From the NCBI GenBank assembly GCA_019651595.1, contig BOYQ01000003.1, forward strand, positions 222,423 through 286,422: a DNA stretch of 64,000 bases, in the 5' to 3' direction. The stretch is from Candidatus Poseidoniales archaeon (GTDB lineage: Archaea > Thermoplasmatota > Poseidoniia > Poseidoniales > Poseidoniaceae). Below, piece by piece: positions 13,911-61,306 of the stretch (position 1 is its first letter; the number at the start of each line of letters is the position of its first letter). The notes beneath the pieces were generated by a model. That model saw only the letters and a list, made by a program, of their open reading frames with translations, did no database searches and was not told the origin of the DNA. The translations under genes and the position numbers were made by a program.

Positions 13911-13979
13911 ACGCCATGCCTGCGAGGCACTTAAGAACCCCTTTTCAGTGGGCGATTCAACCAGAACACGGTGGTGACC

Positions 13980-16183
13980 ATGGGACGCAAAGAAGACAAC
14001 ATCAAGAAGGCCACGGAAGTCATGCACGTTCTTCCTCAAATCAGGAACTTGTGCATCGCTGCTCACATCGACCACGGCAAAACCACGCTTTCAGACAACC
14101 TGATCGCCGGTGCTGGAATGATGTCCAACGAACTCGCAGGTGCTGCACGCGTTCTGGACTTCGACGAGCAAGAATCGGCCCGTGGCATCACCATCAACGC
14201 CGCTTCGGCCTCGATGGTGCACGCCGTTGAAGGCACGGACTTCCTCATCAACCTCATCGATACGCCCGGCCACGTCGACTTCGGTGGCGACGTTACTCGT
14301 GCCATGCGTGCCGTTGACGGTTGCTTCATTCTCGCTTGCGCTGTTGAAGGCCCCATGCCTCAGACCGAAACGGTCGTTCGCCAAGCCCTGAAAGAGAAGG
14401 TCAAGCCTGTTCTTTTCATCAACAAGGTCGACCGACTGATCAACGAACTTCAGGTCACCCCCGAAGACATGATGGCGCGCTTTACCGAGACCATCAAGAA
14501 GGTCAACAAGCTGATCAAGCAGTTCGCTCCTGAAAACAAAAAGAAGTCCTGGCAGGTTTCCGTCCAGGACGGTACGGTGGCCTTCGGTTCCGCATACCAC
14601 AACTGGGGCATCACCGTGCCCTACATGCAGAAGTCCGGCATCTCGTTCAAGGAGATTTTCGAGTACTGCAACAACGAGGATCAGAAGACCCTCGCTCAGA
14701 AGGCTCCCGTCCACGAGGTTCTGCTCGACATGGCGGTCGCTGAATTTCCCAGTCCCGTTCAGGCCCAGGAGTACCGTATCCCCAACATCTGGAACGGCGA
14801 CGCGGACTCCGCCATCGGCAAGGCCATGGTCGCGTGCGACCCCGAGGCCGAACTCGCCATGATGATCACCAAGATTTGGATGGACCCACACGCCGGCGAA
14901 GTGGCCGTTGGCCGCATTTACTCCGGTGCCATCAACCAAGGTGAATCCGTCTACGCCATCGGCGCTGCGAAGCCCGAGCGCGTGCAGCAGGTCGCCATGA
15001 TGGTCGGTGCAGACCGCATCACGGTCCCCAAGGTCGTCGCCGGCAACATCGCCGCCATCACGGGCATCAAGTCCGCCGCAGCCGGTGTGACCCTGTCCCG
15101 CGACAAGGATTTCACCCCCTTCGAAGCCATCCGTCACTACTCCGACCCTGTGGTCACCGTGGCCGTTGAGCCGAAGTCCATGAAGGACCTGCCCAAGTTC
15201 ATCGACGCCCTGCGCTCGCTGGCCAAGGCCGACGCTTCACTTCAGGTACCACCAACCAAGAGACCGGTGAGGGACTGCTCGCCGGTATGGGTGAACTCCA
15301 CCTCGAAATCACCGTTTACCGCATCGAGGAAGAACAGAACATCAAGGTCAAGGTGAGTCCACCCATTGTTGTCTACCGAGAAGGCATTCAGGGCTCGAAC
15401 CGGGCAACTCCCTTGAGGGCAAGTCCCCAACCGCCACAACCGATTCATGTTTGAGATCGAAGCGCTCCCTGCAGAAGTCGTGGCTGCCTTCGAGCAGGCG
15501 AACTCGGCGACGGCCCGGTTCGTAGCAGCGATGCCAAGGAAGTCGGCAACAAGTTCGGCGAATACGGCATGGACAAGGACACGATGCGCAAAATCTACGC
15601 CATCAACGGCACGAACGTGCTCGTGAACGACACCAAGGGTATTCAGAACCTTCACGAAACCCGTGAACTCATCATTGAGGCCTTTAACGAAGTGTGTGTC
15701 AAGGGACCCATTGCTGACGAACCCGTTCAGGGAATGTACGTGCGACTCGTTGACGCCAAGCTCCACGAAGACGCCATTCACCGTGGCCCTGCTCAGACCA
15801 TCCCTGCCGTGCGAAACGGCATCAAGGGTGCCATGATGCGAGCCAAGACGGTCCTCCTCGAGCCCATGCAGAAAGCCTTCATCTCGGTGCCCAACGACTG
15901 GTTGGGACAAGTGACTCGTGAAGTCACCACCCGCCGAGGTATCATTGAAGACATGCCTTCGGAAGGCGCCGTCACCACCGTTGTTGGTGTCATCCCTATC
16001 GCAGAGACCTTCGGATTCTCAAACGACATCCGTGCTGCATCGCAGGGACGAGCCGTGTGGAACACGGAGAACCTTGGCTTCGAGATTCTCCCACCCCAAC
16101 TCTTTGACAAGGTCGTCGGGGAAATCCGTCAGCGCAAGGGCCTGAAGCCCGAGCCCAACCCCGAATCGTACTACGCCGATTGA
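13980..16183 (+). CDS. fusA: translation elongation factor 2 (aEF-2), with frameshifts around 15240-15560
   Basis: G-domain AHIDHGKTTLSD, DTPGHVDF. The C-terminal ORF 15569-16183 carries EF-2 domains IV/V. The middle segment (…GELHLEI…YRIEEEQNIKVKVSPPIVVYRE) sits in another frame. Confidence 0.9.
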
Positions 16184-19329: not shown

Positions 19330-19692
19330 ATGAGGCACCGGCATTGTGTGGAGATCATGGCCGAGGAACCAACGCTCGAGGCTTTCATGCGTCATTTGCA
19401 GGTGTGCGTCGAGGAAGCTCGAACCATCGCTGACCGTACTGAACGGGAGCAACGGTTGTGGCAACTCGAGGCGTCCCTGCAAGAGGCCATCATTTACAAA
19501 AACAGGGTGGAAGAACTCCAACGCCACGGCATCGACCCGATTCGACTGGTCGAAGCGGAGTCATCGCTCTCCCAACCGCCAGCGCCCAAAAAGGTGGAAG
19601 CCTTGCTCTCTGGTCATGATCACTGCAAAACATGCAAAGCCGTTCTTGAACCGGACTTACCTTTCTGTCCTGCTTGCGGAGCAGAGCAGTAA
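19330..19692 (+). CDS. small coiled-coil protein with a C-terminal C4 zinc ribbon (hypothetical)
   Basis: …HCKTCKAV…CPACG at the C-terminus. The start may be the internal Met at 19357. Confidence 0.4.
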   Translation: MRHRHCVEIMAEEPTLEAFMRHLQVCVEEARTIADRTEREQRLWQLEASLQEAIIYKNRVEELQRHGIDPIRLVEAESSLSQPPAPKKVEALLSGHDHCKTCKAVLEPDLPFCPACGAEQ

Positions 19693-20480: not shown

Positions 20481-21674
20481 ATGCCTCGGCTTGCTCCCCG
20501 AATCATGGTCGATGTCGCCGTTGTCGGTGCAGGGCAAACCAAGTACGGTAATCATGCGGCGGGTCTCAAAGGCATGTGGGCTGAAGCCGCCTCCAAGGCG
20601 TTTGCCAGCATTGATGGGGACTTCGAACCGTCGGCGATTGATGAAGCGTTCATTGGAAGCATTGCGTTTGGCGGAGCACAACTCGGCAACACCGCAGCCT
20701 TGCTCACGGAGCATTCGGCCATGGACGGCATCCCTGTGCGCCGGGTGGAAAACGCCTGTGCGTCCTCGGGCTTTGCTCTGCGTGATGCTTGGATGGCCAT
20801 CAAGAGCGGCCAGGCTGACATTGTTGTGGCCGGTGGTATCGAGAAAATGAACGATTTGACAGCTGAACGTAAGCGGTATTGGCTCGGGGTGTCGGGTGAT
20901 ACGGAGTGGGAACGACTGGCTGGTTTGACCTTCCCCGGCACGTACGCGTTGATGGCCCGTCGATATTTCCACGAGTTCGATGCCACCCACGATGACCTCG
21001 TTCACGTGAGCGTGAAGAACCACCTTCACGGGTCGATGAACCCCGTTGCTCACATCCAAAAAGAAGTGAGTTTTGAGAAAGCCGCCGGTGGCTTCATGGT
21101 CGCTGATCCGCTCACGCTCTACGACTGTTGCCCAACCTCCGATGGTGCTTCTTGCGTGGTCCTGGCGGCCGACCACGTCGCTCGAAAACTCACCGATGCT
21201 CCGGTCTGGGTCAGGGGCTCAGGAGCCGCCTCGGATCATTTGGCGCTGCATGACCGCCCGAGTATCACCCAACTCAAGGCCACCCAGATGGCCGCTTCCA
21301 AAGCCTACGGCATGGCCGGCCTCCATGCGCAGGACATCGACATGGCCGAGGTTCACGACTGTTTCACCATCGCTGAGGTTCTTGCAACGGAAGATCTTGG
21401 GTTTGCCGCCCGAGGTGAAGGTGGCCTGTTCGCTCGAAACGCTGAAGGACGCTTGAATGAAGGTCAGACGACCATCAATTCCAGCGGCGGTCTCAAGTCC
21501 AAAGGACACCCGCTCGGCGCCACCGGAACGGGGCAAGTGGTTGAGGTGTTCAAGCAACTCCGGGGCCAAGCCGGGACGAAGCGTCAGGTTCGTGATGCAG
21601 AAACGGCTCTCACCCACAACGTGGGTGGCTCCGGGGCCACGTGCGCCGTTCACGTCTTCGGGAGGGACCGCTGA
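20481..21674 (+). CDS. acetyl-CoA C-acetyltransferase (archaeal / SCP-x-type thiolase)
   Basis: Thiolase fold: …VENACASSG… active-site Cys, …GHPLGATG… C-terminal motif. The start may be the internal Met at 20505. Confidence 0.85.
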   Translation: MPRLAPRIMVDVAVVGAGQTKYGNHAAGLKGMWAEAASKAFASIDGDFEPSAIDEAFIGSIAFGGAQLGNTAALLTEHSAMDGIPVRRVENACASSGFALRDAWMAIKSGQADIVVAGGIEKMNDLTAERKRYWLGVSGDTEWERLAGLTFPGTYALMARRYFHEFDATHDDLVHVSVKNHLHGSMNPVAHIQKEVSFEKAAGGFMVADPLTLYDCCPTSDGASCVVLAADHVARKLTDAPVWVRGSGAASDHLALHDRPSITQLKATQMAASKAYGMAGLHAQDIDMAEVHDCFTIAEVLATEDLGFAARGEGGLFARNAEGRLNEGQTTINSSGGLKSKGHPLGATGTGQVVEVFKQLRGQAGTKRQVRDAETALTHNVGGSGATCAVHVFGRDR

Positions 21675-22480
21675 TGACGGCCCAAGTCTGGATGGGGTAC
21701 TTGGTCGACGCCCAGGAAGATTTCACCGTGATTCAATCTCCCTTTGTCCTCAACGGTTCGAGGGTCTACGGAGCGGACAGTGATGCCACCACCCTGGCGG
21801 TCGCTGGTATGCTTCACCGACTGCGTTCAGAATCCGTTTCTTCGGTGACTGCGCCAGACGGTATTGACACCGTGAGTTTCGCTGGGGCGACCGGCGTACC
21901 ACATCATTCAGAGGACGCGACAGATGAGGCACCCTGGGATTTGCTGGTGGGTGATGAAGCCACGGTGGTGTTGGCTCGTCAAGGCGCCACCGTTGAGTTG
22001 ACCGCGCTGGACGTCGAAATCGATGTTGACGCTGATTTTCATCAAGCCATGGAAGCCGCATGGGCCGCAGAGCAGTCGACCTTTCATGTCAGCCAAGGCG
22101 CTTACGTGTCAAGGGCCCAGTACGAAGAAGCGGCTTCCTCCAGACTCTCCCTTCAGGGTCAGGCGTCCGTGGACACGGTGGTCTGGCCTCCCCGATACAC
22201 GTACATGGTGGACGGGAACGAAGCACAACCGCGCCGTCTCCAACGCACGGGCAAGTTGCTTTCTTGGACCACCCTCTCTGCGGCCGGTGCACCCTCGGAA
22301 TTTTCACTACGTGCGCCCCTCCTCGGTGGCATTAGCACGGTGTTTCTCCAGCTCGATGACGGGCCAAAAGGCGTGTTTTTGGCGGTGGAGATGAAACACC
22401 GGCGTTCGGTATGGATGTTCCCATGGAACTCGTTTTCCGCCGACTGTACGCTCAAGAGGGGTTCATCCGATACGGCTTGA
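21674..22480 (+). CDS. DUF35-like (OB-fold) thiolase partner protein, with an unusually long N-terminal region
   Basis: ATGA overlap with the thiolase stop. The C-terminal part (…YTYMVDGNEAQPRRLQRTGKLLSWTTL…GGISTVFLQLDDGPKGVFL…) resembles the DUF35 OB-fold that accompanies archaeal thiolase/HMGCS. Confidence 0.5.
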   Translation: MTAQVWMGYLVDAQEDFTVIQSPFVLNGSRVYGADSDATTLAVAGMLHRLRSESVSSVTAPDGIDTVSFAGATGVPHHSEDATDEAPWDLLVGDEATVVLARQGATVELTALDVEIDVDADFHQAMEAAWAAEQSTFHVSQGAYVSRAQYEEAASSRLSLQGQASVDTVVWPPRYTYMVDGNEAQPRRLQRTGKLLSWTTLSAAGAPSEFSLRAPLLGGISTVFLQLDDGPKGVFLAVEMKHRRSVWMFPWNSFSADCTLKRGSSDTA

Positions 22481-22539
22481 AAGCACGGACCATAACGGAC
22501 TAACAAAGCATTCATAGAAAGCAAAGTCCAGCACCCGAC

Positions 22540-23556
22540 ATGGCAGGCTTTGGCGGGTTGCGGAAAGGCAGACAGGAAGCCCGTGACAACCTCGCATACA
22601 CTGAAGGTGGCGACTGTCCCCGGTGCGGTGGTGGCGCTCAAGATTCGAGCATGGCCGGTTACCTGCAATGCTCTTCTTGCGGTCATGAATGGGCCGACCC
22701 CAACTACAAGGAAACGAGGAAGCGACCTGCACCTCCGACGCACCGTCGGGACGCCGAGATGATCGAGCAATTCAAGCAAGAGATGGCTTCGGGTGAACTG
22801 GCCAACGTGTTGGGGATCAACAAGAACCTCTCAGGTGAGCAAGAGCAGTCGTTGAAGCGACTGGAGGACAAGTGGATGAGTGGCATGCAAGGCCACTACA
22901 ACGCCGCAGCGGAGGAACGCAAACCGTTGATGATCAGTTTTGATGACGATGACAACATCCTCTCGACCGAGGTGGCCGCCATCACCATCGTCTCGAACGG
23001 GTTTGACGGCGGCGAGGAAATTCGGCTTGAATATCCCGGCCGCGGTACCGAATTTTATGCCTACAACGAACGAAGCCCCACGGGGTGGAAGCGCGGACCC
23101 AACGCGGAATCCACTGCCCGTTCCATTGCCAGCGTCATCAATCGTTCCTCCCGACTGGTTTACGCCAACCTCGAAGGGACTCGAATTTCCTTTGAACTGC
23201 GCGACGAATCTTTGAACGCAGCCTCCTTCGTGATTTTTGTTGACGACCCTGGTGGCACCGACATCGTGGCAGAAAAAGGCGGTGTGGTCTTGGATCACCG
23301 GGACTTCTCCACCATCCAAGATTATCGGAATGTCGTGGAAATGGTGCTTGAGGACGGTATCATTTCACCCAGCGAAGACCAACTCCTCTGGGCCATGCGA
23401 GAACAGTTGAACATCGACGAGGCCTATCACATCCAGATGGTCATGGACATCTGCGGTGAGAACACCCTCAAGGAATGCACCTCGTGCGGGGGCATGGCTG
23501 AACTTTATCCCGAGCACGCTGCATGGTATTGCCACGCTTGCGAAGCGTGGTGTTGA
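22540..23556 (+). CDS. hypothetical protein with N- and C-terminal C4 zinc ribbons
   Basis: N-terminal CPRCGG…CSSCGH. C-terminal CTSCGG…CHACEAWC. The central ~250 aa match nothing I recognise. Confidence 0.5.
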   Translation: MAGFGGLRKGRQEARDNLAYTEGGDCPRCGGGAQDSSMAGYLQCSSCGHEWADPNYKETRKRPAPPTHRRDAEMIEQFKQEMASGELANVLGINKNLSGEQEQSLKRLEDKWMSGMQGHYNAAAEERKPLMISFDDDDNILSTEVAAITIVSNGFDGGEEIRLEYPGRGTEFYAYNERSPTGWKRGPNAESTARSIASVINRSSRLVYANLEGTRISFELRDESLNAASFVIFVDDPGGTDIVAEKGGVVLDHRDFSTIQDYRNVVEMVLEDGIISPSEDQLLWAMREQLNIDEAYHIQMVMDICGENTLKECTSCGGMAELYPEHAAWYCHACEAWC

Positions 23557-23681
23557 AGATGAAATGGCCTCCCTTAGCATCCTTCTATAGAACCCAAGAA
23601 TCATGGCTCGCAGAATGCCTGCAATCATGAATGTGGGCACTCTTCATAAAGTGAAGCGGTATCCGAAAGACGGTTACGCCT

Positions 23682-24707
23682 ATGGCAAAAGACGTGTTGT
23701 ATATTGGAATTGACTTGGGAACCTTCCGTTCGGTGATGGTCTCCTCCGACAGTCACGAAGTGGAAGAATTGACGGTCATTGGAACACCCAAAGACCCCAT
23801 CGCTCGCAACTTCCTGAAGCGAGACGTCCTGTTTGGCAACGAGGCCCTGAAGAATCGCTTGGCTCTGAACCTTTACCGCCCGCTTGAGCTCGGTGTCATC
23901 AAGGACACGCCCGAAGACCGAGAGTTCATCGCTCACTTCATCACCCATCTCATCGGTCTTTCCGACCCCGAGGAATACGACCGTGTCGTGGCCGTGATCG
24001 GTGCACCTGCTGAGGCCAGCCACGTCGATAAGACCGCCATCTTTGATGCTGCTGCCGGATCGGTCAACTCCGCCATGATCATCTCTGAACCGTTTGCTGT
24101 CGCCTATGCGCTTGATATGATCACCCACACCCTCGTCATTGACATTGGCGCCGGAACCACTGACTTGTGCCGCGTCTACGGCACCATCCCTGGCCCCGGC
24201 GACCAAATGCACACCGGCTACGCAGGTGACTACGTCGACAACGCTCTCATCAAGGAGATTCAATCCAAGTACAACGGCGCACAAATCACCAAAGACATGG
24301 CCCGTCGATGGAAGGAGCAGTTCTCCTTTGTTTCCACGGCAGCCCCTGACGAACCCGTGCTGGTGGACTTTTCGATTGAAGGGAAAGCCATGACCTTGGA
24401 CATCACGGACTGCATGCAAGCGGCCTGCGAATCCATCGTTGACCCCATTGTTGAGAACGTCAAGAAACTCATCGCTGGTTCAAATCCAGAATACCACGAC
24501 GAGTTCCGCAAGAACATGGTCCTTGCCGGCGGCGGTTCCTCCATCAAGGGTCTCGGCGCCCTCATTGAGCGCCGTCTTTCTGACATGGGCGACGTCAACG
24601 TCCACGTGGTGGATGACCCGGTTCGATTGGGTGCCATGGGCGGTCTTCGTCTGGCCATGGAAGTTCCCGAAGACATGTGGAAGAACCTGACGCTCGCCTC
24701 CCGCTGA
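23682..24707 (+). CDS. actin-like ATPase (MreB/MamK/Ta0583-type, ASKHA superfamily)
   Basis: Phosphate-1 IGIDLGTFRS. Phosphate-2 VIDIGAGTTD. Adenosine motif VLAGGGSSI. Confidence 0.7.
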   Translation: MAKDVLYIGIDLGTFRSVMVSSDSHEVEELTVIGTPKDPIARNFLKRDVLFGNEALKNRLALNLYRPLELGVIKDTPEDREFIAHFITHLIGLSDPEEYDRVVAVIGAPAEASHVDKTAIFDAAAGSVNSAMIISEPFAVAYALDMITHTLVIDIGAGTTDLCRVYGTIPGPGDQMHTGYAGDYVDNALIKEIQSKYNGAQITKDMARRWKEQFSFVSTAAPDEPVLVDFSIEGKAMTLDITDCMQAACESIVDPIVENVKKLIAGSNPEYHDEFRKNMVLAGGGSSIKGLGALIERRLSDMGDVNVHVVDDPVRLGAMGGLRLAMEVPEDMWKNLTLASR

Positions 24708-24723
24708 GGAATCAGGCCTGAAT

Positions 24724-25335
24724 TTGGCCGCTGTTGGCGGCATCGATTTGGTAGAAACCATCTTTGACCCTGCGCAAGCATCCTCCATCATGCCAAAAGT
24801 TAGCACCGGGGATAACGCACCAGCCCTCGTTTTACCAGCCATTGACGGAAGCACGTTCGACATGCAATCCGTTCGTGGAAAGAAAGTGATTCTCACGTTT
24901 TTCCGATTTTCGACCTGCCCGCTGTGCAACATGCGGATACGAAAGATCAAACAGCGGTGGAATGAATTTTCACAGGACACCGTCATGGTTGGCGTGTTTG
25001 ATGCGACCATCGCCGACCTTACGAAACGCATGAAAAAACACGACGTCCCGTTTACCATCGTGGCCGACGAATCTTATGCTGCGTTCGAATCCAACGGCGT
25101 CACGAAATCGTTTGCCAAGTTCATGTGGGGAGCTGCCAAATCCCCCCTTACGCTTCTTCAAGCAACCTTGAGGGGCTACGTCCCGTTGACGATGTCCATT
25201 GGAAAACTGTCCACCATACCCGTCGACATTCTCATCGATGAGAACGGTCGTGTCGTCGACGCTCATTACTGCAAGGACACGGCGGACCATATGTCGCTTG
25301 ACCGAATGATCGCTTTCTCAAACGGAACGCTCTGA
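24724..25335 (+). CDS. thioredoxin-fold redoxin (AhpC/TSA-like) with a CxxC motif
   Basis: …KKVILTFFRFSTCPLCNMRI… redoxin signature. The start may be the internal Met at 24790. Confidence 0.55.
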   Translation: MAAVGGIDLVETIFDPAQASSIMPKVSTGDNAPALVLPAIDGSTFDMQSVRGKKVILTFFRFSTCPLCNMRIRKIKQRWNEFSQDTVMVGVFDATIADLTKRMKKHDVPFTIVADESYAAFESNGVTKSFAKFMWGAAKSPLTLLQATLRGYVPLTMSIGKLSTIPVDILIDENGRVVDAHYCKDTADHMSLDRMIAFSNGTL

Positions 25336-25361
25336 TTGGACAACAACGTTGGTGCCTGTGC

Positions 25362-26021
25362 TCAGGCGTTTCCGGCTTTCTCAACCTCGGCCCAATCACG
25401 CATGAAGCCTTCCAGACCGCGGTCGGTCAAGGGGTGGCTCATCAGCTGGCGGAAGGTCTTCGCCGGCATGGTAGCGGTGTGCGCACCCAGTTGGATGCAC
25501 TGGAGAACGTGCGTCGGGTGGCGGACCGATGCTGCGAGAACTTTGGTGTCAAGGTCGTAATTGGCCCACGTGTTCATGATTTCAGCAATGAGTTCCATGC
25601 CGTCGTGGCCGGTGTCGTCAATTCGCCCGATAAACGGTGATACGTACGTGGCACCGGCTTTGGCAGCCATGAGCGCTTGAGAGGCCGAGAAGATGAGGGT
25701 GACGTTGGTGTCGATGCCTTCCTCCGTGAGAATCTTCGTTGCAGCAAGCCCTTCGGGCGTGCACGGAATTTTGATGATCACGTTTTCCGGAAGTTCTGCC
25801 TTGAGCGCTCGCCCTTGGTCCACCATCCCCGCCGTGTCCATGGCGGTCACCTCGGCCGAAATTGGGCCGGAGCAGATGCCTGCGATTTCTCGAACCACTT
25901 CTTTGAAGTCCCGGCCCGACTTCTTGATGAGCGACGGGTTGGTCGTTACACCGTCAAGAATGCCCCAGGCGGCAATTTCTCGAATTTCATCGACGTCGGC
26001 TGTATCCAGGAAGAACTCCAT
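25362..26021 (-). CDS. fsa: transaldolase / fructose-6-phosphate aldolase (Fsa-type, ~217 aa)
   Basis: [16 protein letters not shown]…GVTTNPSLI… and an active-site Lys region. Confidence 0.9.
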
Positions 26022-26081
26022 GGTGCTTGTTCGACGAAGAGATTCTATGAACTCTCCCCTGCGGAGAAGAACGGCTGTGAA

Positions 26082-59364: not shown

Positions 59365-59479
59365 TGCCCTACCTCGACGATGCTACGCTCGATGCAGGTT
59401 CTAAGGAATTCCGCCTACAACAAGGTGCAAGTCATCAATCATTATATTGCCCTTCTTCGTGGAAATAAGTGGTGGAACG

Positions 59480-61306
59480 ATGACGGATGAAGAAAATGAA
59501 TCGGTTGCCATGGCTGAGTGCGGTGCTTGTCGAGCCGTCATCCCCATCGATTCGACGGAATGCCCCGAGTGTGCAACGAAATTTTCGGGTGTATCCGAAG
59601 ATGCACTTGGGGAGTGCGGGGGCTGTCAAGCACTGGTCCCCCTCGACTCGACACGTTGCCCCGAGTGTGGTGTTCTCTTCGTAGCGGACGACGTCGTTGA
59701 TATCCTTCGCCAGTGGGTTGCAGACACCGGCATTAACATCCGGAAGTTGTTCGACAAGTTCGATGAAAATGACGACGGCACCATTGATTCAGATGAACTC
59801 AAGCGTGGTTTACTCAGTTTGAACCTCGCCGACCTTCCACCATCGCAGGTTGACCGCCTTGTCGCCGAAATCGATGCAGACGGTAACGGCGTCATCGATC
59901 TTGATGAGTTTGACGCCATCCTGATGGGGTCGAACGCTGCACAGGAGGAGGCGCCCGCACCCGTAGAGACCGACGGAACGGCCGAAGATGATACATCCGT
60001 TCTTGAGGGCGAAGATGACGGCGGAGAGGCTGACGAAGAATCAGCTGATGCAGAGAGCGATGCCGAGGAAGCAGATGCATCGGTCGAAGAAGAGGCTGAA
60101 GAGGAGGCCGAAGACGAGGCTGAGGAGGAGGCAGAGGATGATGAAAGCGCTGCGGAGGAAGAAGAAGCCGGTGAAGAAGAAGATGAGGCACACGGCATCG
60201 ACGATGAAGCGTTTGACATTGACGAAGAAGAGGATTCACCGGAAGCCGACGCGGACGAAGAAGAACCTCATCGTCCGCTGGCCGCGCTGTCCGCGCTGGC
60301 GGACCTGATGGATGAACATGACATCTCAGCGCAACGCCTGTTCAATGAACTCGATGCAGACGGCAACGGTGTCGTATCCATTAGCGAACTGAAAAGCACG
60401 ATTGCAGAGAAGTACGGTGATGATCTCGACCTTGAGCAAGTGAACGCCATCATGGAGGGGGCTGACGTCGACGGTGACGGTACCATCGACATCACCGAGT
60501 TCATCGGTTCGCTGGAAGATTACGAAACCATGGAGGAACTGGTAGAGGAGAAAGTCTTCCCGTCTCCGTGGCAGAAGCGCATGATGTCCAAATCGTGGAA
60601 CGACACGGTATGGCCCATCCTCCACGTTGCGTTCGGCATCATGGTTGCGCTCTTTATCGCCAACGGGATGTTTGGATTTGTCGATGGAACCGGTGGCAAT
60701 GTCGCCTACATTCCGAATGATTCTGGTTTGATACCAAGTGGGAACATTGTTGAGGGCGACATTTACCCGTGCGACGAGAAGTACCAGATGGACGGTTGTC
60801 GAAACTCGCTCACACCCCTAGCAGGTGCGAACGGCTCCCTTTCAATGCCAACCGGTTTCTACTGGGACGGCATCATGCTGATCGCCCTCTCGGTCATCGG
60901 AATGGCGACTACCCTGTTCTTGCATCTCGTGAAAGCCCCCGAGTGGCGCGCAAGGGCCAAAGCCATGAAAGAGTTTGAAACGGACAAAGCCGAAGCAGCA
61001 GAATCGGCCGAGGAATCCAGCGATGAGACGGACGATGATGAAGCGGTTGCGGACGAAGATGAAACCGAAGATGATGAAGCCTACGAAGAGGACGATGAAC
61101 TCGAGGATGACGTCGACGAAGACACGGATGACGAGGCCGAAGAAGAAGGGATTGACATTGGTTCGCACATTGGATTGGTGTTTGACGACGAAGAGGTCTT
61201 TGGGGTCATCGTAGAATTTGATGACGATGAGGAAACAGTGACCATCGAAGAAGATGGCACTGGCGACCTTGTGACCGGCTACCAGGAAGACATGTTCCTT
61301 GAGTGA
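59480..61306 (+). CDS. membrane-anchored calcium-binding protein: double zinc ribbon + 4 EF-hands + 2 TM helices + poly-acidic tail
   Basis: Zinc ribbons CGAC…CPEC and CGGC…CPEC. Canonical EF-hand loops DENDDGTIDSDE, DADGNGVIDLDE, DADGNGVVSISE, DVDGDGTIDITE. Hydrophobic segments around residues 395-420 and 470-495. D/E-rich linker and tail. The long ORF begins at 59447; the first Met in a good context is at 59480. Confidence 0.7.
   Translation: MTDEENESVAMAECGACRAVIPIDSTECPECATKFSGVSEDALGECGGCQALVPLDSTRCPECGVLFVADDVVDILRQWVADTGINIRKLFDKFDENDDGTIDSDELKRGLLSLNLADLPPSQVDRLVAEIDADGNGVIDLDEFDAILMGSNAAQEEAPAPVETDGTAEDDTSVLEGEDDGGEADEESADAESDAEEADASVEEEAEEEAEDEAEEEAEDDESAAEEEEAGEEEDEAHGIDDEAFDIDEEEDSPEADADEEEPHRPLAALSALADLMDEHDISAQRLFNELDADGNGVVSISELKSTIAEKYGDDLDLEQVNAIMEGADVDGDGTIDITEFIGSLEDYETMEELVEEKVFPSPWQKRMMSKSWNDTVWPILHVAFGIMVALFIANGMFGFVDGTGGNVAYIPNDSGLIPSGNIVEGDIYPCDEKYQMDGCRNSLTPLAGANGSLSMPTGFYWDGIMLIALSVIGMATTLFLHLVKAPEWRARAKAMKEFETDKAEAAESAEESSDETDDDEAVADEDETEDDEAYEEDDELEDDVDEDTDDEAEEEGIDIGSHIGLVFDDEEVFGVIVEFDDDEETVTIEEDGTGDLVTGYQEDMFLE

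Follow-up and report, generated by a model that had tools for sequence, protein, structure and literature searches.

We analysed a stretch of 64,000 nucleotides (the window) on contig BOYQ01000003.1 of a Candidatus Poseidoniales archaeon (Marine Group II, MGII), in which the gene for a protein with two zinc ribbons (the ribbon protein) is followed by the gene for an actin-like ATPase. The two open reading frames (ORFs), at 22540-23556 and 23682-24707, both lie on the plus strand and are 125 bp apart, and each encodes a soluble protein of about 37 kDa. Marine Group II comprises the commonest archaea of the surface ocean. These archaea are still uncultured and, to our knowledge, their cell biology is essentially undescribed. 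The features of the locus are listed below with their positions in the window; the confidence of AlphaFold2 (AF2) models is given as the predicted local distance difference test (pLDDT) score.

22504-22518, plus strand: promoter-like box, AAAGCA and then TTCATAGA, starting 29 nt before the ATG of the ribbon-protein gene; it resembles an archaeal B recognition element (BRE)/TATA element.
22540-23556, plus strand: gene of the two-zinc-ribbon protein, 338 aa, acidic, soluble, of an orphan family (ORF and homologue searches).
22615-22680, plus strand: N-terminal zinc ribbon (C26, C29, C44, C47), residues 26-52; cysteines invariant, AF2 pLDDT 60-78.
22840-22959, plus strand: residues 101-140, QEQSLKRLEDKWMSGMQGHYNAAAEERKPLMISFDDDDNI, highly conserved and not confidently folded (column conservation 0.85-0.89, pLDDT 37-56).
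22960-23289, plus strand: central domain of alpha/beta type, residues 141-250; its sequence relatives are limited to the family itself (AF2 pLDDT 78-89).
23314-23556, plus strand: C-terminal module of a TerB/ENT-like helical hairpin (residues 259-305, motif LEDGIISPSEDQLLW) and the second zinc ribbon, then the stop codon (pLDDT 83-89).
23557-23681, plus strand: 125-bp spacer with a second conserved box, TTCATAAA, at 23643-23650, 39 nt before the actin ATG; box and flanks are conserved in the Poseidoniaceae loci displayed.
23682-24707, plus strand: gene of the MamK-like actin-fold ATPase, 341 aa (ORF, NCBIfam, PDB sequence search, Foldseek).
23706-23723, plus strand: phosphate-1 motif GIDLGT, residues 9-14; D11, L12, G13 and T14 invariant, aligned with DLGT of MamK.
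24084-24164, plus strand: catalytic region, residues 135-161, with SEPFAVAY (E136) and the phosphate-2 motif VIDIGAGTTD (D154, D161); invariant in 31 relatives.
24522-24542, plus strand: adenosine-binding motif LAGGGSS, residues 281-287; L281 to S286 invariant, aligned with FAGGGS of MamK.

Conservation of the gene pair

The best-matching genome loci all belong to Candidatus Poseidoniales. The closest of them (96 % identity) are labelled Poseidoniaceae, Thermoplasmatota or Poseidoniales, and many at 86-95 % are labelled Poseidonia sp. Among GTDB species genomes, 294 stretches match the ribbon family, and the synteny of the pair was followed in the 80 best species-level loci, 78 of which had enough downstream room to judge. 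In all 78 the actin gene lies immediately 3′ of the ribbon-protein gene and in the same orientation. A further six loci of greater divergence, Thalassarchaeaceae among them, show this adjacency too; their ribbon proteins are 53-64 % and their actins 75-79 % identical. The initial annotation had described a 338-aa protein with CPRC...CSSC and CTSC...CHAC(EAWC) ribbons upstream of the ATPase and had named synteny in relatives as a check on the pair. The ribbons are present as described, their cysteines being invariant, and the two genes adjoin throughout the order.

Around the pair, the gene order changes. The upstream neighbour varies by lineage: most loci have a 279-aa ORF, those of the L046 type KptA along with an inverted thiolase block, and Marine Group IIb (MGIIb) a bacterial-type thiolase. 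In four loci (L046, L049, L050 and L059) the thiolase block points the other way and stands apart from the pair, and in L046 it is KptA that directly precedes the pair. In MGIIb the 279-aa ORF is missing, the upstream thiolase is of a non-orthologous bacterial type (21-23 % identical), and the ribbon-protein gene begins about 40 nt after the thiolase gene. The genes downstream of the pair also vary widely among relatives. The pair is the only invariant adjacency of the neighbourhood.

Two contigs with the typical MGII block of thiolase, ribbon-protein and actin genes come from metagenome-assembled genomes that are labelled 'Verrucomicrobiales bacterium' (L019, NZEQ01000006.1) and 'Rhodobiaceae bacterium' (L065, CALDQY010000010.1). 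These are most likely mis-binned archaeal contigs.

A similar short element precedes both genes. The octamer TTCATA[AG]A occurs in four copies in the window, three of which sit 29-39 nt before a start codon: at 22511, before the ribbon-protein gene, at 23643, before the actin gene, and at 26051 (minus strand), before the transaldolase gene. Upstream of the ribbon-protein gene, the box has kept both its place and its sequence in the Poseidoniaceae loci displayed; it is not evident in the one MGIIb locus shown (L082). Across relatives, the spacer between the two genes measures 83-160 bp. This pattern suggests that the boxes upstream of the two genes would serve as promoters, and the octamer is possibly a strong-promoter TATA variant of the lineage. 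Since each gene has its own box, two similar promoters are suggested rather than obligatory co-transcription.

To describe selection on the pair, the ratio of nonsynonymous to synonymous substitution rates (dN/dS) was determined against close relatives. It was 0.008-0.038 for the ribbon protein, 0.012-0.021 for the actin and 0.027-0.040 for the thiolase; as dS was near saturation these values are rough, yet clearly far below 1. By this measure, both genes are real and under strong purifying selection. The dS of the actin gene was 0.74-1.3, compared with values of 1.7-2.7 or saturation for the ribbon-protein gene and the thiolase gene (20481-21674). This low value hints at a codon-usage constraint from high expression, which would fit a housekeeping cytoskeletal role.

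The two proteins differ in their rate of change. The mean pairwise distance was 0.23 for the ribbon protein and 0.09 for the actin, so that the former evolves about 2.6 times faster. Accessory factors typically evolve faster than their filament protein. Pairwise divergences of ribbon protein and actin were correlated (r 0.86; partial r 0.67 when controlling for thiolase), and the converse partial correlation, between ribbon protein and thiolase with actin controlled, was 0.35. The divergence of the ribbon protein thus appears to track that of the actin more closely than that of the thiolase, which is suggestive of a coupling but only suggestive, because shared phylogeny inflates such values.

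A MamK-like actin

The best match to the MGII actin, by hidden Markov model (HMM), sequence and fold, is MamK (5LJW, 5LJV, 5JYG), the magnetosome-positioning actin of magnetotactic bacteria, which has been found by experiment to form filaments. From end to end, the protein shares 39.9 % of its residues with MamK of Magnetospirillum magneticum AMB-1, and the nucleotide-binding and catalytic motifs of the two proteins are identical. In the 31 relatives aligned, the motifs YIGIDLGT (D11, G13, T14), SEPF (E136), VIDIGAGTTD (D154, G156, G158, D161) and VLAGGGSS (G283-S286) are invariant, and SEPFAVAY and VIDIGAGTTD match VSEPFMVGY and VDIGAGTTD in MamK position by position. However, the host of the MGII protein is a non-magnetotactic archaeon.

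Among NCBIfam families, MamK (NF040964) scored best by a wide margin, with 362.7 bits (E 1.6e-108) over residues 6-337 and positions 1-331 of the 335 of the profile, which is below the cut-off of 400. BeeR reached 213.5 bits against a cut-off of 530. The MreB models TIGR00904 and NF010539 were both missed, with 88.6 and 95.5 bits against 365.75 and 293, as was salactin (NF053533; 58.9 bits against 400). Models for Hsp70/HscA, PilM, FtsA and EutJ gave 15-32 bits, their cut-offs being far higher. In Pfam, the protein passes the broad MreB_Mbl model (95.2 against 27), which is the reason why public records label it as the 'rod shape-determining protein' MreB. It also passes Salactin (50.5 bits, above the gathering score) and misses both Volactin (29 against 35) and MreB-like_C, the C-terminal domain of an archaeal actin homologue (20.5 bits against 27.8). 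Two further matches were weak, one to a phage 'partition protein' in PHROGs (E 2e-7) and a marginal one to PDC-M61B in PADLOC (E 9e-4, 16 bits).

A search of PDB sequences placed the three MamK entries 5ljw, 5jyg and 5ljv on top (E about 1e-76). The alignment with 5ljw (E 1.2e-76) runs from residue 2 to 336 of the actin and from 8 to 341 of MamK with two small indels. BeeR (2.9e-43), MreB (about 1e-15) and eukaryotic actins (about 1e-5) followed, and Ta0583, crenactin and ParM were not among the matches at E <= 1e-3. The AF2 model has a mean pLDDT of 77.6, with a poor prediction for residues 33-73, presumably subdomain IB. Foldseek again put MamK first (E 2e-28, template modelling score 0.72-0.80), before BeeR, MreB and the actins and actin-related proteins (Arps). 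All of the top 50 matches were MamK, BeeR, MreB, actin or Arp, with no kinase or chaperone among them.

The initial annotation had recognized the nucleotide-binding motifs IGIDLGT, VIDIGAGTTD and VLAGGGSS, which are all present with their nucleotide-binding residues invariant in the relatives, and had expected a polymerising actin rather than a sugar kinase, Hsp70 or PilM. The scores agree with this expectation, as the latter families reach 15-25 bits compared to 363 for MamK. Its suggestion of an 'archaeal actin' akin to Ta0583 and crenactin has to be revised, because neither is found among the PDB matches at E <= 1e-3 and the protein is instead MamK-like and of bacterial type.

Hundreds of homologues of the actin were found, and among the best 120, for which source names were seen, the names given are Poseidoniales, Thermoplasmatota or a generic archaeal label. 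In a neighbour-joining tree of nine sequences, a rough sketch, the MGII actins form a tight clade that is roughly as far from MamK as from the three phage actins (37-44 %); BeeR branches outside. By its sequence, the ATPase belongs to the MamK branch of the polymerising-type actins, where it represents a distinct subfamily outside the curated MamK family and in a non-magnetosome context. In the same sense it is a new subfamily of a known kind, the MamK-branch actins.

The second-best relative is BeeR (PDB 8R2N; 34 % identity), the three-stranded tubular actin of Verrucomicrobiota. BeeR was published as 'most closely related to MamK', to which it is 25-30 % identical, and like the MGII actin it is a MamK-related actin of a non-magnetotactic organism (PMC11929497). 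The MGII actin lacks the disordered N-terminal extension of 30-50 aa and the insertions of BeeR, and with 40 % identity it is nearer to MamK than BeeR is (25-30 %, PMC11929497). The haloarchaeal actins salactin and volactin are also archaeal actin homologues but belong to another lineage and genomic context. Although salactin has been reported as closest to the MamK group (PMC10746226), its similarity to the MGII actin is far weaker than that of MamK (58.9 compared to 362.7 bits in NCBIfam).

MamK-like actins that are 37-41 % identical to the MGII protein were also found on three viral contigs, at L089:4995-6038 (IMG/VR UViG_3300009370_000045), L090:4995-5999 and L091:4971-5993. On L089, the actin gene stands directly before the gene of a T4-type large terminase, and a nearby ORF is presumably the major capsid protein. 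The MamK-type actins of phages may form a separate family.

The two-zinc-ribbon protein

The ribbon protein has a ribbon at either end, C26-P-R-C29...C44-S-S-C47 at the N-terminus and C313-T-S-C316...C331-H-A-C334, followed by C338, at the C-terminus. All eight ribbon cysteines are invariant in the 30 relatives aligned. The protein is acidic (pI 4.7), both ribbons carry a net negative charge, and no transmembrane segment or hydrophobic stretch is present. In a collection of 5.8 billion proteins, 304 homologues were found. The best 120 of these, for which source names were seen, are 65-96 % identical, and the names given are Poseidoniales, Thermoplasmatota or a generic label. An HMM scan of 1.84 billion representatives of 50 %-identity clusters gave a single full-length cluster, the other strong matches being fragments. 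Because only one such cluster was found among so many representatives, the family is, as far as these searches reach, restricted to the order Poseidoniales. None of the viral contigs scanned carries a homologue.

Database searches assigned little of the protein. The sole Pfam match was Zn_ribbon_IS1595 at residues 22-49, with 22.9 bits below the cut-off of 25.4. NCBIfam, PHROGs and PADLOC gave no match, and Pfam and NCBIfam revealed no enzymatic domain. A profile of the family, compared with PDB sequences, gave only a weak eL43/L37Ae-like match at residues 10-59 (E 0.004). The remark of the initial annotation that the centre of about 250 aa resembles nothing known agrees with the absence of any match to this region in Pfam, NCBIfam, PHROGs and PADLOC.

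The AF2 model has an overall pLDDT of 69.8. A conserved basic leader (residues 1-25, with R8, G10 and R11) precedes the first ribbon, and a variable linker with helices follows it (residues 53-100), modelled with low confidence. In the conserved segment of residues 101-140, L105, L108, W112 and M116 are invariant and would lie on one face of a helix (LxxLxxxWMxxM), after which comes ERKPLMISFDDDDN. For the central domain, Foldseek found local resemblance only, over about 105-140 aligned columns at a root-mean-square deviation of 2.6-5 A and 9-20 % identity. The matched domains, of roughly 110 residues, belong to phage tail tubular protein B, nozzle and tail proteins and are not diagnostic of function. 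A gelsolin- or cofilin-like reading of the central beta-beta-beta-alpha-beta-beta topology was considered and rejected, as no gelsolin, ADF or profilin was among the top 50 PDB matches.

The hairpin and the second ribbon (residues 310-338 with C313, C316, C331 and C334; pLDDT 85-89) are the sole part of the protein with relatives outside the ribbon family (about 253-337 of the profile). These relatives carry the module at their C-termini, and their N-terminal parts are kinase, helix-turn-helix (HTH) or transmembrane or membrane-anchored sequences. In Pfam, they match TerB mostly below threshold (P0305 passes) and in some cases ENT above the cut-off. One module-bearing protein adjoins an MscS channel gene; a protein search with it matched the query alone. 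In the relatives followed up, with this one genomic context viewed, no cytoskeletal link of the module was found. The module seems to be a generic unit for interaction or oligomerisation and not a marker of the cytoskeleton. The eL43/L37Ae- and IS1595-type ribbons and the TerB/ENT hairpins are likewise generic small modules, which define neither the function of the ribbon protein nor its core of about 200 aa.

Seven of eight proteins from a representative library (P0307, P0324, P0330, P0332, P0335, P0338 and P0349) share a segment IIQNIGEYIAGGKVDIxDSVVQRSxIG ahead of the hairpin and a WYCxxCE ribbon module, and the eighth (P0315, 116 aa) consists of the hairpin-ribbon module alone. Several carry transmembrane N-termini. 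Together, these proteins look like an uncharacterised mobile module family.

Proposed role of the pair and alternatives

On balance, we lean slightly towards reading the locus as a two-gene cytoskeletal module of MGII, composed of a MamK-like filament and a lineage-specific accessory protein. The actin is predicted by homology to assemble into ATP-dependent filaments, since it is 40 % identical to MamK from end to end and its invariant motifs are intact. The ribbon protein is probably its dedicated helper, to judge from the invariant adjacency, the matching phyletic range and the correlated divergence, and would serve as an accessory factor of the filament, as an adaptor or an assembly regulator. 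The absence of an enzyme domain in the ribbon protein, the equal strength of purifying selection on the two genes and the rare TTCATA[AG]A box before both genes also support such a module. Contact with the actin would be made through the conserved unstructured segment at about 101-140, the central alpha/beta domain or both. Our guess is that residues 101-140 are the partner-binding segment, because they are highly conserved and yet do not fold on their own. Conserved segments that do not fold alone are typical of filament-binding adaptors. The C-terminal hairpin-ribbon module might mediate oligomerisation or attachment to a second target. As for the filament itself, a housekeeping role in cell shape, division or the positioning of DNA or cell contents is most likely, rather than the alignment of an organelle, because magnetosome genes were not seen here and the actin occurs throughout the order, changes very slowly and is constrained at its synonymous sites. 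No mam-type magnetosome genes were found among the about 20 of 65 ORFs of the window that were scanned with Pfam, which include every flanking gene.

Such an arrangement would follow the logic of crenactin-arcadins, MreB-RodZ, ParM-ParR and MamK-MamJ, in which a filament-forming actin stands by analogy beside a small, lineage-specific, non-enzymatic and faster-evolving protein. However, no likeness of the partners in these systems to the ribbon protein was detected in sequence or fold (Pfam, NCBIfam, Foldseek, PDB profile). The ribbon protein also differs from MamJ, MamY and McaA/B, the known partners of MamK, with which it was compared from general knowledge and not by sequence. We know of no actin partner with a double zinc-ribbon architecture. 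The actin with its two-zinc-ribbon orphan is a new variant of the theme of an actin plus dedicated partner, the pairing being known here from the genes. More tentatively, and as something possible rather than probable, we consider an undescribed actin cytoskeleton of MGII in which a partner invented in the lineage tethers or regulates a MamK-type filament through its two ribbons and its disordered segment.

Several observations weigh against a dedicated module. No fusion of the ribbon and actin genes was found, and with a promoter-like box for each gene and a spacer of 83-160 bp, co-transcription is only a possibility. Gene order is generally well conserved within the order, so synteny is weaker evidence here than it would be across phyla. 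No ribbon-protein gene stands beside the MamK-like actins of the three phage contigs, and the partners of MamK itself are unrelated, so that the actin family can do without the ribbon protein. In addition, the C-terminal module occurs in non-cytoskeletal contexts and the weakly eL43-like N-terminal ribbon could point to RNA binding. A first alternative is that the two genes are merely conserved neighbours, the actin working alone or with unlinked partners and the ribbon protein being an independent RNA- or nucleic-acid-binding or regulatory factor. The separate boxes and the long spacer, the phage actins, the eL43/L37Ae- and IS1595-type character of the N-terminus and the occurrence of the C-terminal module in kinase, HTH and MscS-adjacent proteins all fit this explanation, and synteny within one order can last without functional coupling. 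On the other hand, it is the adjacency of the pair alone that is invariant, through at least three upstream contexts and many downstream ones, the divergence of the ribbon protein is closer to that of the actin than to that of the thiolase, and an acidic protein with two net negative ribbons would be unusual for a nucleic-acid binder. We therefore regard the explanation by neighbourhood as rather unlikely, though a serious alternative.

Two more specific alternatives fail particular tests that were made here. An actin gene next to a small adaptor gene is also the architecture of type II partition systems, and the ribbon protein might bind a centromere and link the DNA of a chromosome or plasmid to growing actin filaments, as the adaptor of ParMRC does. 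In favour of this, zinc ribbons are able to bind DNA, the actin has its weak match to the phage 'partition protein' in PHROGs, and salactin, which is related to the MamK group, influences how chromosomes are partitioned in haloarchaea (PMC10746226). Nevertheless, DNA segregation of this kind appears improbable: at 21600-25400 no repeat array or centromere-like direct or inverted repeats were found, only two-copy matches at chance level, the candidate adaptor is acidic with non-basic ribbons, the actin is far nearer to MamK than to ParM, which is missing from the PDB matches at E <= 1e-3, and the locus is chromosomal and lies among housekeeping genes. Very improbable, in our estimate, is a link to the mevalonate pathway, in which the ribbon protein would act as a divergent DUF35-like zinc-ribbon scaffold for the thiolase/HMG-CoA synthase complex of archaea and would lie next to the actin only incidentally. 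The isoprenoid-lipid character of the neighbourhood (NUDIX/polyprenyl-synthase fusion, AA_kinase-family protein, thiolase), the distance of about 40 nt to the thiolase gene in MGIIb and the N-terminal zinc ribbon of archaeal DUF35 scaffolds, known in general, would be in line with it. But DUF35_N and the DUF35 OB-fold gave no Pfam match at E <= 0.01, the core is predicted as alpha/beta with long helices and no OB barrel, the thiolase block is inverted and apart from the pair in the four loci named above, and the thiolase of MGIIb is not orthologous.

In GC content, the pair (0.557) differs little from the segments next to it (0.559-0.582) and falls inside the range of the window (0.534-0.599). 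Upstream lie genes for a NUDIX/polyprenyl-synthase fusion, an AA_kinase-family protein that we take to be isopentenyl phosphate kinase, a small coiled-coil zinc-ribbon protein, KptA, an archaeal-type thiolase and the 279-aa ORF. Downstream are peroxiredoxin, transaldolase and a split transketolase, as well as a gene that, from its sequence, we take to be an OPT-type transporter. The 279-aa ORF (21641-22480, plus strand) shares 34 nt with the end of the thiolase gene, and Pfam gave nothing for it up to E 0.1. Its sequence changes fast, with 32-71 % identity from relative to relative, and MGIIb loci lack it; towards the C-terminus it resembles DUF35/OB, but by eye only. The coiled-coil protein (19330-19692, plus strand; 120 aa) has a C-terminal zinc ribbon (DZR/Zn_ribbon_3, sub-threshold) and adjoins KptA; genes for 107-108 aa occupy the same position in the divergent MGII loci L081, L083, L085 and L087.

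Two other genes of the window deserve mention. The elongation factor 2 (EF-2) gene at 13971-16183 (plus strand) is broken into a 461-aa ORF (GTP_EFTU, EF-G domains II and III) and a 204-aa ORF (EFG_IV, EFG_C). The approximately 210 nt between them read EF-2-like in other frames, and relatives have one 735-aa gene, which points to frameshifts or assembly indel errors in the record. The gene at 59447-61306 (plus strand) encodes a protein of 619 aa that has a double zinc ribbon at the N-terminus, at least four calcium-binding EF-hand motifs (EF-hand_7, E 3.7e-22) and, near the C-terminus, a weak match (E 0.07) to a transmembrane-domain model. Such an architecture is unusual for an archaeon.

In the full-text literature searched, we found no paper that links MGII or Poseidoniales to actin, MreB or MamK. 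The two proteins of the pair are small and soluble, so that a system from an ecologically dominant, uncultured host could be studied in vitro without culturing that host. The MamK-type family, otherwise known from bacteria, is found here on phage contigs as well, and with the MGII actin its branch extends into non-magnetotactic archaea; MamK-type filaments would then be general-purpose and not specific to magnetosomes. Should the ribbon protein bind the filament, a new structural class would be added to the very short list of prokaryotic actin-binding proteins. If the undescribed cytoskeleton considered above is real, archaea would have their first MamK-type system that does housekeeping work instead of serving magnetosomes, and the partner in it would be the first zinc-ribbon actin-binding protein.

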